64,000 bases of DNA, from NCBI GenBank assembly GCA_037446635.1, contig JBBIIG010000001.1, positions 213,638 through 277,637 of the forward strand, read 5' to 3'. Made by a program: the position numbers. This stretch comes from a bacterium. GTDB lineage: Bacteria > Zhuqueibacterota > Zhuqueibacteria > Oceanimicrobiales > Oceanimicrobiaceae. Shown here in pieces: positions 55,001 through 61,000 of this stretch (the stretch's first letter is position 1; each line of letters starts with the position of its first letter).

Positions 55001-58000
55001 ATCCGGCGTTCGCCTGGTTGAAGGTGATGTCGTTCGCTTTATTTCAAATCGTGCTGGGATTTCTCATTTTTGCATTGGCGTTTTTTCTGATTAGCGGACG
55101 CGCCGTGAAGTTTAATTCCCCAAAATCACCACCGCCGCGCGGACGTTCCAAAACGCCATGAGATTTAATTTCTAACCCGCTCTATTTCAAATAGCAACCG
55201 GGCTTTCTTGGCTAAGGTGATTAAATATGATGGATTACTGGATTAATTCGGTTGGCCTTTCATTGATCCATTAATCCAACGCTCCATTACTCCAAATTGT
55301 AACAACTTAGATTTCATTGTCATAAACTTGTTGGACTTCAAGATTTGTCAATATTCAGGCTAAAAGCACATGAGACAAAAAATCGTTTTTGCGTTCATCC
55401 TCTCGCCGCTGCTGTTTGCGGTCGTCTTCCTACTGCTGCCAGCCGACAACGCCGCTAATCGAGCCTCGGATCCCGCCGGCAACGGCGTTTCCAATTCAGC
55501 AGCCGTCTCCGCGGACAGGCTAATCTTTCTCTTACAATATATCAGCATCGACTACGGCGGCGCGGTGGCAAACCAGCGCGTCATCAATGAATTCGAATAC
55601 AGCGAAATGCTGGACTTCGCAGCCACCGCGGACGAATGGTACTCGCAACTCCGTGGGAAAAACAGCGATCCTTTCACGCAGCAAAAACTTCAGCAGCTAA
55701 AAAGTTTAGTCGAAAGCAAAGCCAACTGGTCTGAAATCAAAGACAGCGCCGGCGAGCTGATTCATCAATTGTCGCAAGAATTGAACGTCATCCCCTACCC
55801 AACGAAAACTCCCAATTTGAAAGTGGGGCAAAATCTTTATCGCCAGGTCTGCGCCGACTGCCACGGCAGCAGCGGCGATGGCCGCGGCCCCGCGGCGGCG
55901 TGGCTCAATCCGCCGCCGAGCAATTTCCAAAACAATGAACGAATGAACTTGGCCACGCCCCACCAATTTTTCAACGCCATCACCTTCGGCGTCGCCGGCA
56001 CCGCCATGCCTTCCCATCAGCAGGCGCTCAGCGACCAACAACGGTGGGACATCGCCTTTTATTTGATGACGTTGCGGCAGGGATTCAATCCGCGGACACC
56101 GGCGGGCGACGTCAAGCTTTCGGTGAACGAACTTGCCGGCGCTTCCAACACCGAGCTCGCGGCAAAACTTAAATTCGACGCGAAGAATATCGACGAATCG
56201 AATCTTTTTTCCACGGTGGATTACTTTCGCCAAAATCCGCCGCAGGTCAGCGTTGAAGAGCAGCTTACCTTCACCCGCCAAAAACTGCACGAAAGTTTGA
56301 CGGCTTACAAAAACGCCGATTTCACCGGCGCGCTGAACGCCATCACCGACGCCTACCTTGCCGGCGTGGAGCCATTGGAAGCGCAGCTCCGAAGGGCGGA
56401 TGTAACGGCCCTCGAAATGGAATTCAGCAAATTACGCAACGCCATTCTCACGCAGCGGCCGTTCTTTGAGGTCGAGGTGCACTACGACAACCTCGACCGG
56501 CGGCTCAACGAAATCCGCACCGCCGGACCATCGGTCGCGCAGCGCGGCTTCGTTCTGCTGCAGTCGTTGACCATCATTTTAAGAGAAGGCATCGAAGCGA
56601 TTCTACTCATCGCGTTGATGTTCACCTACCTGGTTTCCGCCGGCTACAGCAATCTGAAAAAATACGTCGTCAGCGGCGCGCTCGCGGGGCTGGCTGCCGG
56701 CGGGCTAGCCTGGTTTACCGCGCAGTTTTTGCTGACGATCTCCATCATCCAGCAGGAGGCGCTGGAAGGAATCACCTCTTTGCTGGCGGCGGCGGTGCTG
56801 TTTTTCGTCAGCTTTTGGATCATTCACAAAGTCGATATTCGCAAGTGGAAAACTTTCATCCGCACGAAAGCAGAAAAAGCGCTGGGGACCGGCAGCGGCC
56901 TGGCGTTGTCCGCGGTAGCGTTTCTGGCGGTATTTCGGGAAGCCTTTGAAACGGTTTTGTTCTATCAGGTTTTGTGGCTGCGCAGCGATGCCGAACGAAC
57001 GAGCGTCGTGCTCGGCTTCGTGCTGGGCGCGGCGGCGCTAGCCTTGGTTCTCTACCTCGTTTTCAAATTAGGTGCGAGGCTGCCGCTGAAACCGTTTTTC
57101 ATTAGCACCGGGATTCTGTTAGGCATGCTGGCGTTCATGTTTGCCGGCTACGGCGTGCGCGAGTTGCAGAACATCGGCGTGTTGAAAGAGACCCTGCTGC
57201 CGTGGGATCTCCGCTGGCCGGTTTTAGAAATTCATCCCACCGTGGAAGGCCTCGCGCTACAAATGGCAATGCTGATTTCGTTTATCCTGGGGTGGTTTTC
57301 AGTGTTAGCGGAAAAATTGAAAAAAGCGGAAAAGCGGATTCGTTTGCGGCCGGTGGCGGTCAAAACGGATTAAATGACAGGCGGATCAGGCCAAGTTTTT
57401 CCTCCTTTATTTTTCTTTTTGGTTGCGCTCAATTGGAATGCCGCTGCTGCGAACTAGTGATGTGGTACTCCTTCATTTTCCGCCACAACGTGGTGCGGCC
57501 AATTCCCAAAATTTTGGCCACCAGATCATAGTTCCAATCGAATTCCTGCAGCGTCGCGGCGATGTGATTTTTTTCCAAATTCTTCAAACTCAAATCGGCG
57601 GCGTCGGCGCGGTGGTTGGTCGCGGTAGGTTTGAACATATTTTGGGGGAAATCTGCCTTGCTTAAATATTTTCCCAAACACAACGCCGCCGCCCGCTCGA
57701 TGGCGTTCTCCAACTGGCGCACGTTGCCGGGCCAATCGTATTCGCACAACAGCTTCTGCGCTTCCTCGTCGATGCCGTAAATGGTTTTGTGAATTTTTTC
57801 CGCGTATTTTTTGGTGAAAAATTCCGCCAGCGGCAGAATATCTTCTCGATGATCTCGCAGCGGCGGAATGGTGATTTGAATCACATTCAAACGATAATAC
57901 AAATCCTGCCGGAACAATCCCTGCGCGATCATCTCTTCCAAATCGCGGTTGGTCGCGGTAATCAATCGCACATCCACCTTCAGCGTTTGATGACTTCCCA

Positions 58001-61000
58001 CGGGCTTGATTTCTCCCTCTTGCAAAAAGCGCAAAAGTTTAACCTGCATCGCCAGAGAGGTTTCGCCAATTTCGTCCAAAAAAATGGTGCCGTGGTTGGC
58101 CGCTTCGATTAAACCTTTTTTGTTGTGAGTGGCGCCCGTGAACGCGCCGCGCACGTGCCCAAACAACTCGCTCTCCAGCAAACTTTCCGGCAGAGCGCCG
58201 CAGTTGACGACAATGAAAGGATTTTGCGCGCGGCTGCTGTGCTCGTGAATGGCGCGGGCAATCAATTCTTTGCCGGTGCCGCTCTCGCCATCGATGAGCA
58301 CGGAAATATCGGTCTGCGCGATGCGCGCCACCAGCTCCAGAATATTCTGCATCGCCGGACTTTTGCCAATGATGTTCCCGAAACGATATTCTTCTCGTGA
58401 ATTGACCCAGGCGATAAAATCATCCACTTCGCGATCGATGAGCTGTTCGATCACCGCGGCCACCTTCTGATGTTCTTTCAAATTGCTGGCGACGATTTTT
58501 TCCAGATCGCGCTTGTTGTAATAATAAATGTTGTACACGTCCGAAAGGTTGAGCTTTTCAAAAACATCCGGCTGCGAATCGTCCAGATAAGAGACAAACA
58601 ACAGCGGCCGGTTATTGCGCCGGCTCATCATTCTTGAGATCTGCTGCTGTTCAAAAATCGGCGCGAAATCTTTGCTGTACATCAGCAGCAAGTCGATAGA
58701 CGGCAGAACCTGACTGAGCTGCTCGGTCTTAATTTTCGCGCCGCCAAAACGCTCAATCAACGACGCGCTCTTGTTATGAAAATCCACAAGGAAAAGTTCG
58801 CCAATATTCTGCTCTTTTAGTTTTTTAACGAGCGGCTCAAAGGAATAACCGTCCGCGGCGATCAGCGCTTTGTGGTCTTTGAGATCGCCGAACATTTTCT
58901 GGGCGATCTCCACCAGCACTGATTCCGCGGTGATGGCGTTTTTTTGAACATTAAGCTGGATTCGGATTTTCTCCGCCAACCACAAACCGCGCTGAAAAAG
59001 TTTATTTAACTTCGGACCCACCAGGTTCAAACTGCGGGACTTTTCAAACGCCTTCCGAAAGTCTTCAAGCGAATGCGTCATCTCCCCCGCTGCATCCATG
59101 CCAATTGCCAGCCGGAAAAATTCACGCAGGGCATCCGGGCCATCGGCGCGGAAACGACGGCTTTGCAAAACCTCAGCCGGCGCTTCGTATTCTTTTTGCA
59201 GTTCCACATAAAATTTTGAAATCAAAATGTCCCGCTGCTCTGCCACCGCGAAGATTTGTATTCTCTCCCCAGCTTGATAGACAAACATCTCCTGCGCCGA
59301 AAGTTTTTTGCCGGCAAACTCGGCGAGAGTGGTCAAGTTGCGCGCCCAGCTCTCCCGCGCTTGTGACTCGGAATAATCAAAACCGAAGGTAAAAATTGGC
59401 ATAGCCGCTTATTGAAAATTATGAAACTTTGAAAAAAACAAATTGACAATGATAAACGAAAACAACAACCAGTTGAACCCGATCACCGACACCACGGCCG
59501 CTCGCAAACCCTGCCAGCCGACGATTTTCCGCGTCACATAGTGCGCGAGGTAAATGGCCCACGAAATCACCACCGCCAGCAGTTTTGGGTCTAGCGCCCA
59601 GCGGCCCTCCCAGACCCTCGTCCCCATGTAGAACCCCAGAACGATGCCAAGGCTCACCACAATTAAGCCGATGTTCACGGCTTGATTGCTGAGCTTGTCC
59701 ACATATTCCAATGACGGCAGCCGCTGAAAAAAAATCCCCAACTTTCTCGTGCGCATTTCCCGCGCCAACAAAATGTACATGATGCTGGTGATGAACGAGA
59801 TACTGAACGCTGCGTAAGCGGAGATCATAATCGCCACGTGCACCTCAAACAACAGTATGGTGCTCAGCAACTCGGCAAGCGGTTTATCGAAGTCAATGAA
59901 AGCGCTGGAGATGCCGTGTAAGATGAGAATGATGGGAATGAAAAACACGCCCATCGTCATCACTTTGGCGCGAATTTCGATGATGAGATAGACCAGCACA
60001 AAAAACCAGGCGCAGGTGGTCAGCACCTGAAAGACGTCGCCCACTGGAATGTGCTGTAGTTTCAAACCGAGCAAGATCAAATAAATGGTATGACACCCGG
60101 CTGAGAGCGCCAGCCAAAATCGCAGCCGAGACTCGGTTGCCTGTTTTTTTATTCGGAAATAATAAAAATAATAGCCGAAGCTCACGCCGTACAAAACGAA
60201 CACCAGCCAACTGAGAGACCGCAGAATTTCGATCACTTTTCACCCAAAAATTTTCGATTTTCATTTTGAAAATAGGAAATCCTGCTCTGAAATGCAAGCA
60301 CGGAATAGGTAAGGATAATTCTCCCTTTCCGTATCTTGGTTAAAAGGGTAGGGGTAATTCATGAATTACCCCTACCCTTTCAGCACCCTTCAGTTAAAGG
60401 AAAAGGGTAATTTGTGAATTACCCTTACGCCCTCTTTCCGCAGCTTTAAGGCAAAGTATTTATATTTATAGCATGTTATGCCAAATAACCTTCCGTTCTG
60501 CATCCATCAATTTTTAAGACGTGAGGAGGAATGTAGGTGAAAATTTTCTCGAATCTCAAAGGCGATTTCATGGGGGGACTCACCACCGCCGTCATCACAC
60601 TGCCCTGGGCGATTGCATTCGGAATTGTGGCGTATGCGCCGCTGGGCGAACAGTACATTGCGCAAGGCGCGCTCGCCGGACTGTATAGCGTGATCGTTTC
60701 CGGACTGCTGGCCAGCGTCCTCGGCGGAACCACCGGACTCATCTCGCTGCCGACCGCACTGCAAGCGGTGATGACAACGTCAATTGTCACCACGATTCTC
60801 AAGAATCCGGAAATCGCCGCGCTCGGGAGCAATCAGGTCACGGTGGTTTTGGTGCTGACGGCCATGGCCATTGCGATGGCAGCGATATTTCAGTTGATCC
60901 TCGGCGCCAGCGGCGGCGGCAAGCTGGTGAAGTTCATCCCCTATCCGGTGATCGCCGGCTTTATGAACGGCATTGCCATCATCATTTTCATGGGACAATT

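Follow-up and report, generated by a model that had tools for sequence, protein, structure and literature searches.

Relation to described regulatory systems

Control of a sigma-54 enhancer-binding protein (bEBP) by a partner protein is known from pairs such as NifL-NifA and PspA-PspF. In the 64,000-nucleotide stretch of bacterial DNA analysed here (the window, which starts at contig position 213638 and not at 228752), a predicted bEBP noted in a genome-wide survey resembles NtrC, ZraR, NifA, XylR/DmpR and PspF in its AAA+ core with a GAFTGA motif, its Fis-type helix-turn-helix (HTH), the tandem palindromic enhancer upstream of a -24/-12 promoter, and its probable autoregulation. However, its input module is a dead metabolic enzyme rather than a REC, GAF, PAS or V4R domain, and its partner is a polytopic protein of a haem-handling fold.

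A PF01578 membrane protein encoded beside a glutamyl-tRNA reductase (GluTR) fold also characterises the HemX-GtrR system of Bacillus and Staphylococcus, which is tied to haem homeostasis (PMC5801465, PMC10991733). According to the accessible portions of these papers, hemX never occurs without gtrR and the two genes are adjacent in 106 of 113 genomes (PMC5801465), and the mechanism by which HemX restrains GluTR is stated to be unknown, with no partner known and haem binding unvalidated (PMC5801465 in 2018; PMC10991733 in 2024). HemX as described there acts post-transcriptionally on an active enzyme, whereas the GluTR found here is dead and forms part of an activator, the level of control is transcription, and the pair is retained even where haem synthesis has been lost. 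Haem-linked sensing with transcriptional control of hem genes has likewise been reported, in the available text, for HrrSA/ChrSA of corynebacteria (PMC10991733) and NmpR of Myxococcus (PMC11841059), but these are kinase phosphorelays and the fusion has no receiver domain. Since NmpR binds a hemN promoter, as that text states (PMC11841059), the sigma-54-controlled haem pathway put forward in the survey's note as new is not wholly without precedent. We found no description of a pseudo-GluTR/HemX sigma-54 system in the literature; supplementary files might list such fusions.

A sigma-54 activator with a dead GluTR input domain

Judged from its sequence, the 657-aa protein encoded by an intact ORF at 57429..59402 (minus strand) is a complete sigma-54 enhancer-binding protein whose input domain is a dead GluTR. 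Only 6 bp separate it from the ORF of a 275-aa HemX/CcsA-fold membrane protein (59409..60236, minus strand). Both ORFs lie where the survey's note had placed them, and its Pfam architecture was reproduced with identical domain ranges for the activator (GlutR_N 24-147, Shikimate_DH 165-302, Sigma54_activat 344-510, AAA_lid_14 and HTH_8), together with PF01578 in the upstream gene. Residues 1-338 of the activator correspond to the GluTR catalytic and NADPH domains. The N-domain shares 23% identity with the window's HemA (E 2e-14), a profile of 45 such domains matched GluTR structures alone (1gpj, 4e-38; 4n7r), and homology to GluTR extends from the catalytic and Rossmann domains into the long helix that follows (residues 311-334).

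The claimed loss of the catalytic Cys and the NADPH motif holds across the family: the Cys of the TCNR motif was present in 0/45 fused proteins versus 45/45 true GluTRs, and the NADPH-loop GxG in 0/45 fused proteins. Glutamate-pocket residues were found in few fused proteins (R in 3/45, S in 5/45, E in 4/45, and Q in 9/45 and 3/45) compared with 43-45/45 in true HemA, a comparison set chosen by its TCNR-like motif. The GluTR fold is, however, not full length as had been described, because the dimerisation domain is missing: by Pfam, GlutR_dimer (PF00745; HemA residues 330-430) is present in hemA and absent from the fusion, which carries the AAA+ domain in its place.

The AAA+ domain bears the motifs GESGTGKE, GAFTGA and FLDEI, and the Fis-type HTH ends in IGRTTLWRK. 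Among 60 fusion frames, which were selected by Walker A and hence all carry it (60/60), GAFTGA was found in 55 and the R-x-DL-x-x-RL of the arginine-finger region in 58, and the window protein has all three. Across fusions whose N-domains are just 13-64% identical, the recognition helix hardly varies, and it is unique among the 23 bEBP frames recovered in the host genome (G000), which also encodes rpoN (453 bits). Comparison of HTH variants (ISRATLWRK in one family) revealed no matching change in the operator. None of the 25 NCBIfam models listed was matched by the activator above its cut-off, and a Foldseek search with its full-length model gave AAA+ alone among the matches listed.

The membrane protein upstream resembles the cytochrome c synthase CcsBA (7s9y; described in the accessible part of PMC10663686) in its fold (TMq 0.68) and in both periplasmic haem-ligand His, but its transmembrane His is displaced by two positions. 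The residues aligned to CcsA periplasmic His1 and His2, H133 and H272, are invariant among the HemX-like proteins (44/44), with H49 conserved in 40/44 and H232 in 37/44. We infer that the protein may bind haem.

Distribution and origin of the pair

The profile detected the fusion in 65 of 167 genomes of the phylum, including the unpublished G158 and G162 and one (G073) missed by BLAST, where the survey's note had counted 59. In 62 of the phylum's 63 published genomes with the fusion, the HemX-like gene is its immediate upstream neighbour, much as the survey's note had claimed for every locus examined, and it follows the pseudo-GluTR even where hemA has been lost, whereas hemX sits beside true hemA solely in genomes without the fusion (G075, G084, G085). 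An obligate HemX-like partner is supported. Outside the phylum, the N-domain of a divergent member used as query gave no locus, and 12 weaker hemX loci had no fusion (0/12), four of them being hemX-hemA-hemC. Several divergent fused proteins carry no taxon assignment.

This synteny fits the proposed duplication of a hemX-hemA pair as the source of the activator and its partner, but the hemX/ccsA tree does not decide the matter: HemX and CcsA are not clearly separated within the phylum, long branches meet, and the tree holds no Bacillales sequence. In a quick GluTR tree built with no outgroup, a branch with an SH-aLRT of 100 sets the 45 fused domains apart; the tree is compatible with a possible single origin and points to no donor.

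A predicted enhancer at hem operons tracks the fusion

The true hemA (51115..52422, minus strand; TIGR01035, 458 bits), the presumed first target gene, has the TCNR motif, the GxG loop and the dimerisation domain. It is followed at 39340..51114 on the same strand by hemC, hemD, hemE, hemN, hemH, a hemY-type oxidase, hemB, an unannotated 285-aa ORF and a hemL-type aminotransferase (gene names from Pfam families). Upstream of the hemA ATG at 52422 lies the -24/-12 promoter reported previously, TGGCAC-N5-TTGA (52481..52495, minus strand), and the reported departure from the canonical TTGC recurs, TTG being followed by A or T in 33 of the 37 promoters. A predicted enhancer with 1 mismatch is located 114 bp upstream of the -24 element (52595..52609), and a second, half-conserved one (52615..52629, minus strand) 20 bp upstream of the first, a tandem arrangement as in relatives. 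A perfect palindrome, TTTTCA-N3-TGAAAA, stands 22 bp before the hemX start (60258..60272), where it may serve as an autoregulatory site, and is the sole perfect copy in the 4.64-Mb host genome.

The survey's note had counted it against the system that no enhancer sites were defined. However, palindrome and -24/-12 promoter occurred together at the hem operon in 37 of the 38 fusion genomes with enough DNA upstream of it, versus 0/7 genomes without the fusion and about one co-occurrence expected from shuffles, although the motif was defined on the same sequences as those counted and the counts are not independent because the genomes are related. In an unbiased count, TTTCA-N3-TGAAA was the top dyad upstream of hem operons (31/38). 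The palindrome lies 75-220 bp upstream of the promoters, often in tandem copies 20-22 bp apart, and an IHF-like site falls between enhancer and promoter in 14/38 cases versus 9 expected. Within 300 nt of hemX, the palindrome was found at 18/19 loci of the host's family (Oceanimicrobiaceae) and its sister family, and it was absent before hemX from 25/25 fusion loci outside these two. The bare palindrome is present in 0-21 copies per genome irrespective of the fusion, and this genome-wide count does not separate fusion from non-fusion genomes. G011 had no promoter match, and no target of the fusion was found in G159, G065 or G087.

The comparison strongly indicates, at the level of sequence, that the activator's HTH would bind TTTTCA-N3-TGAAAA; sigma-54 control of the hem operon through an enhancer that tracks the fusion is supported, and the fusion very probably activates these enhancer-bearing promoters.

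In G000, G054 and G056-G059, a gene cluster of iron-uptake type is divergent from hemA; it comprises a porin, an FMN-binding protein and cytochrome c-FTR1, or else FeoB together with a DtxR-type repressor. A sigma-54-like match facing the porin operon in G000 was rejected, as it lies inside the coding sequence of that operon.

Uptake operons in genomes without haem synthesis

Both hemA and hemC are missing from twelve fusion genomes of at least 90% completeness. Fusion genomes without hemA had been held to be a weakness, but in 9 of these 12 the same element fronts a TonB-receptor operon, a HmuY operon included, and because uptake operons carry it where hemA is missing, such genomes support a haem signal. 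Used out of sample, the motif as defined on hem operons located lipoprotein-TonB receptor operons in 18 of the 19 fusion genomes with a strong homologue, as well as receptor-HmuY operons in G138, G139 and G140. It was absent from 6/6 HmuY operons in non-fusion genomes, and G059 and G135 have uptake-type operons without it.

The predicted uptake module consists of a lipoprotein of ~160 aa, a TonB receptor and a membrane protein of ~235 aa; neither Atlas nor Pfam assigned the lipoprotein or the membrane protein to a family. The best NCBIfam match of the lipoprotein-linked receptor was TonB-hemin (TIGR01785) in 4/4 cases, at 175-202 bits and thus below the cut-off of 316.85. The receptors carry FRAP/FRSP and NPxL, but no His between FRAP and NPNL. 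In G139 and G140, HmuY (PF14064, over its cut-off) is encoded behind a second receptor type, and this HmuY-linked receptor scored best with TonB-B12. Overall, the system looks like a haem-sufficiency regulon, and haem or tetrapyrrole status is quite likely to be its signal.

A proposed haem-sufficiency switch and its alternatives

The overall reading in the survey's note stands as far as the pseudo-GluTR bEBP, its obligate HemX partner and sigma-54 hem control with an enhancer tracking the fusion are concerned; we infer the remainder as follows. The activator would turn on whichever route supplies haem, its targets being a protoporphyrin-route operon, a sirohaem/Ahb-route operon or, where haem cannot be made, TonB-receptor uptake operons. 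In the host's family it would also bind immediately ahead of its own operon and probably act there as a repressor. With haem plentiful, the haem-bound HemX-like protein would grip the GluTR-shaped domain, much as HemX presumably restrains genuine GluTR, and keep the activator off by sequestering it, blocking hexamer assembly or promoting its turnover; with haem scarce, the activator would be released and helix 311-334 would relay the signal to the AAA+ domain. Sensing of haem status through HemX contact with the activator seems fairly probable, while we lean just slightly towards haem-loaded HemX as the inhibitor. Taken as the whole explanation, a haem-sufficiency switch derived from a duplicated hemX-hemA pair is somewhat favoured.

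HemX accompanies the dead GluTR domain even after haem synthesis has been lost, which argues that HemX recognises the GluTR fold. The system might represent a new class of membrane-coupled haem sensor, a proposal on which we are evenly divided: HemX would be a haem receptor recognising that fold, its contact would be made transcriptional by the dead-GluTR/sigma-54 fusion, and the switch would have outlived its pathway and been rewired to haem uptake, so that the regulon would also mark an unannotated uptake module. The system offers a transcriptional read-out of HemX-GluTR recognition, testable in Escherichia coli with two genes and a ~150-bp promoter. It adds a pseudoenzyme input module, operator given, to the sigma-54 activators, and its regulon predicts an unannotated haem-uptake operon.

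The same regulon could arise if the haem of the membrane protein were a fixed cofactor reporting oxygen, redox or iron state and not haem supply. Up to four conserved His could hold a stable haem, an iron-uptake-type cluster is divergent from hemA in the genomes named above, and NmpR ties oxygen to hemN in the available text of PMC11841059. Non-haem targets also exist, with the element preceding a secreted subtilase in G127, G135 and G144 and other non-haem genes in G148, G151 and G116. Nevertheless, this is unlikely given that the core targets either make haem, by two different routes, or serve uptake in genomes that have lost its synthesis, that no respiratory-chain operon occurs among the annotated compound-pattern matches, and that the divergent iron cluster of G000 lacks any sigma-54 promoter outside its coding sequence.

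Marginally less likely still, the pseudo-GluTR domain itself would sense a cytoplasmic ligand (haem, tRNA-Glu, ALA/GSA or the real GluTR), with the membrane protein a co-expressed haem handler and not a gate. GtrR of S. aureus binds haem (available text of PMC10991733), and the fusions have kept both GluTR domains and conserved surface residues such as W141, K169-G172, R262 and W332. However, no His/Cys column of the N-domain exceeds 17/45, both the glutamate pocket and the NADPH loop have been lost, and the hemX link is near-absolute. As the fusion lacks the dimerisation domain and persists without hemA, pairing with the real GluTR cannot be its general input.

It is very improbable that the palindrome belongs to a different regulator and the fusion controls something else, even though G000 has about 33 AAA+ activator-like loci and, in six genomes where no fusion was found (G109-G112, G114, G115), palindrome and promoter precede an unrelated lipoprotein beside a kinase/NtrC-type response regulator pair. 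At hem and HmuY operons the element goes with the fusion; it also precedes the operon that encodes the fusion and, in eight genomes, is found immediately downstream of the fusion gene, at five hem operons (G002, G004, G005, G006, G073) and three uptake operons (G009, G145, G146). The element also persists in three further genomes in which the fusion was not found (G076, G140 and G163), but G140 is 90% and G163 75% complete, and G076 looks like a decaying system, with its enhancer kept, its fusion-type hemX an orphan and its promoter short by one base. Finally, an incidental pairing with a membrane protein that is simply the CcsA subunit of a cytochrome c synthase can practically be dismissed: PF01578, the CcsBA fold and a tree that does not separate the protein's origin from CcsA would allow it, but the protein's WWD motif is degenerate, ResB/CcsB was not found in G000 (97% complete), whose two further PF01578 genes are CcmF- and CcmC-like in size, and ResB-linked ccsA genes form a separate group in the hemX/ccsA tree.

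Enhancer and promoter at hem operons

Upstream of hemA we found the palindrome TTTTCA-N3-TGAAAA, frequently doubled at 20-22 bp spacing and lying 75-220 bp upstream of a promoter of the form (T/C)GG(C/T/A)(A/G)-N6-TTG. True (catalytic) hemA was above the cut-off in 49/167 phylum genomes, and loci were taken from 48 of them (G158 left out) plus G027; upstream DNA was unusable in G052 and G060 and too short in G048. Among the 38 genomes encoding the pseudo-glutamyl-tRNA-reductase (GluTR) sigma-54 activator (the fusion), the palindrome occurred with at most one mismatch in 37, versus 0.9 expected from dinucleotide shuffles, and it was the top dyad of an unbiased count (31/38). 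Palindrome and promoter occurred together in 37/38 (all except G011; ~1 promoter match expected), counts drawn from related, non-independent genomes and from the same hem-operon sequences on which the motif was defined. The G069 hemA locus was positive for both. Neither a second, stop-containing hemA of G007 nor any of seven loci from genomes without a detected fusion (G027, G067, G075, G076, G084, G085, G142) had the combination. The sigma-54 -24/-12 promoter reported in the genome-wide survey's note is thereby upheld, whereas its objection that no enhancer sites were defined no longer holds. After TTG, 20 of the 37 promoters have A, 13 have T and 4 have C, so that, as already remarked there, the -12 element is mostly TTGA or TTGT (33/37) instead of TTGC. 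The element precedes hemN-hemH-type as well as sirohaem/Ahb-type operons.

In the window (position 1 is contig position 213638, not 228752), the palindrome match lies at 52595-52609, a half-match at 52615-52629 and the -24/-12 pattern at 52481-52495. Downstream, hemA (ATG at 52422) leads same-strand hemC, hemD, hemE, hemN, hemH, a hemY-type oxidase gene, hemB and a hemL-type gene; a 285-aa ORF without a Pfam match (41578-42435, minus strand) separates hemB from hemL and overlaps the hemB end. AT-rich palindromes at 52446-52464, just downstream of the hemA promoter, and ~52746-52764, before a divergent porin gene, resemble a Fur box. Similar sequence also precedes hemA in G054, and a second, iron-dependent control is possible. 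The divergent cluster (52768-57373, plus strand) encodes a porin-like protein without annotation, an FMN_bind protein, a membrane protein and a cytochrome c-FTR1 fusion. Its first three genes point away from hemA in G054 and G056-G059 too, followed mostly by a DtxR-type repressor gene and often feoB, and a homologue of the porin-like gene comes after the regulated uptake operon (below) in G166.

The element at uptake operons

As a test outside the sequences on which the motif was defined, we turned to fusion genomes with a completeness of 90% or more, twelve of which contained neither hemA nor hemC. A palindrome search in five of these twelve pointed to an operon in which a lipoprotein gene is joined by genes for a TonB receptor and a membrane protein. 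We examined 22 strong lipoprotein homologues (G162 left out), 21 once G160, too short, was set aside, and found a perfect palindrome with promoter at 19: in 18/19 fusion genomes (not G059) and in G163, a 75% complete genome in which the fusion was not found. The pair was absent at the homologue of G142, which lacks the fusion, and occurred at 0/6 weak homologues. The receptor gene was checked in six genomes, and the operon lies directly downstream of the fusion in G009, G145 and G146. The best NCBIfam model of the receptor was TonB-hemin in 4/4 cases, below cut-off, and the His between FRAP and NPNL was not present. A second operon type, receptor plus HmuY, had the element in G138, G139 and G140 and lacked it in 6/6 non-fusion genomes (one with just 240 nt upstream) and in G135, which carries the fusion. 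Overall, 9 of the 12 genomes have an element-bearing uptake operon; no such target was found in G159, G065 or G087. These comparisons strongly indicate, with little doubt on our part, that the fusion activates haem-supply promoters via the palindrome.

A dead reductase domain on an intact activator

The fusion ORF (657 aa; 57429-59402, minus strand; Pfam GlutR_N 24-147, Shikimate_DH 165-302, Sigma54_activat 344-510, lid, HTH_8) and the HemX-like membrane ORF (275 aa; 59409-60236, minus strand; PF01578) are as the survey described them, except that GlutR_dimer is absent and the GluTR portion is therefore not full-length. A profile of 45 N-domains (residues 1-338 in the window protein) matched GluTR structures only, namely 1gpj (4e-38) and 4n7r (2e-23). 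In a comparison with 45 true HemA, chosen for a TCNR-like motif, the catalytic Cys was kept in 0/45 fused domains and the NADPH-loop GxG in 0/45, as had been claimed; the Arg after the Cys position persisted in 3/45, the pocket Ser in 5/45, Glu in 4/45 and two Gln in 9/45 and 3/45. These residues mark the N-domain as a dead GluTR. Motifs of the AAA+ domain are preserved (GAFTGA in 55/60 frames), rpoN is found in the host genome, and in the predicted model a long helix (311-334) continues into the AAA+ domain (pLDDT 73). Two fused members, P0050 and P0072, retain more GluTR-like pocket sequence, again without the catalytic Cys, and are possible early-branching forms. Different GluTR fusions were also seen: GluTR-hemerythrin, SirC-GluTR and GluTR-AhbAB/NirDL (P0131, P0133, P0165).

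Distribution and origin

The N-domain profile matched 72/167 phylum genomes, with a fused frame in 65 (63 without unpublished G158 and G162), which revises the earlier count of 59/167. The remaining seven had true hemA only, among them G069, where an AAA+ half lies at a contig edge before hemA. As previously proposed, the membrane gene directly precedes the fusion, by coordinates in 62/63 genomes; the exception, G061, begins at a contig edge. G075, G084 and G085, all without the fusion, are the only genomes in which hemX adjoins true hemA, and the tandem order hemX-fusion-sirC-hemA occurs in G002, G004, G005, G006 and G073. Such synteny fits the suggestion that a hemX-hemA pair was duplicated and that hemX then followed the dead copy, a history that the trees do not root or prove. 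PMC5801465 states that hemX never occurs without gtrR (the GluTR gene of Bacillus and Staphylococcus) and that the HemX mechanism is unknown. In contrast, hemX here persists where gtrR is gone but stays with the pseudo-GluTR, exceptions being G076 (an orphan) and G010 (contig edge). A SulP-STAS-cNMP-binding transporter gene (60537-62753, plus strand) is divergent from hemX and, in several members of the family, is found close to the fusion. In G007 (L045, L073), the hemC beside hemA contains an internal stop and another hemC lies elsewhere; the genome also has a second hemA, interrupted by an internal TAG.

Signal and alternative readings

The regulon switches between two synthesis routes and uptake, and for this reason its signal is probably haem. 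The predicted membrane-protein model (pLDDT 89) matches the CcsBA structure 7s9y. H133 and H272, conserved in 44/44 partners, align with the CcsA periplasmic haem ligands (roles as in PMC10663686); H49 is kept in 40/44 and H232, two positions before the CcsA transmembrane His, in 37/44. The partner thus plausibly binds haem, and a redox or iron signal read through a fixed haem is an unlikely alternative to haem itself. That the N-domain senses directly is similarly improbable: no His or Cys column exceeded 17/45 in the fused alignment. Since HemX acts negatively on GtrR (PMC10991733) and the N-domain lacks haem ligands, haem-loaded HemX would instead gate the activator, inhibiting it when haem is plentiful.

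Very unlikely is that the palindrome belongs to another regulator. The compound pattern matched 60/167 genomes (reversed control, 0), and 26 further matches were annotated. In six of these, from G109-G112, G114 and G115 (L170-L175), without the fusion, palindrome and sigma-54 promoter precede the gene of a 213-aa lipoprotein, and genes for a PAS kinase and an NtrC-type regulator run divergently from it; another activator can therefore use the palindrome, in what appears from its conservation to be a separate regulon. The recognition helix of the fusion is nearly invariant across the phylum and unique among 23 activator frames recovered by filter in the host genome (tblastn suggested ~33). The only perfect palindrome in that genome, which has 57 one-mismatch sites, lies 22 bp before hemX (60258-60272). 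With three duplicate loci removed, a palindrome occurred within 300 nt of hemX in 18/19 loci of the host and sister families and in 0/25 remaining fusion loci. G076 (L227:3189-4058, L055), where tandem enhancers are kept, a fusion-type hemX is left as an orphan and the promoter is short of one base, looks as if it lost the activator recently.

That the partner is an ordinary CcsA is scarcely credible despite the structural match: its WWD motif is degenerate, ResB was not found in the host genome and two further PF01578 genes occur there, making a cytochrome c synthase role unlikely.

Partial precedents are NmpR, which binds a hemN promoter (PMC11841059), and Bradyrhizobium, where RpoN loss lowers haem-biosynthesis transcripts (PMC13207237). 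Full-text searches of open-access papers showed no GluTR-like activator. The fusion is of the same kind as other sigma-54 activators; what is new is its pseudoenzyme input and HemX-like partner.

Other sites with the element

At G000:C36:14942 in the host genome, a palindrome with one mismatch is followed after 84 bp by a canonical TGGCA-N6-TTGC promoter; the pair precedes Ser/Thr kinase-like and FHA-like genes, possibly the target of a different activator. The element also precedes a small outer-membrane-type protein gene in G148 and G151, unrelated genes elsewhere, and a secreted subtilase (S8 + I9) in G127, G135 and G144 (L237, L238, L181), beside the fusion in the first two; speculatively, this subtilase could free haem from proteins.
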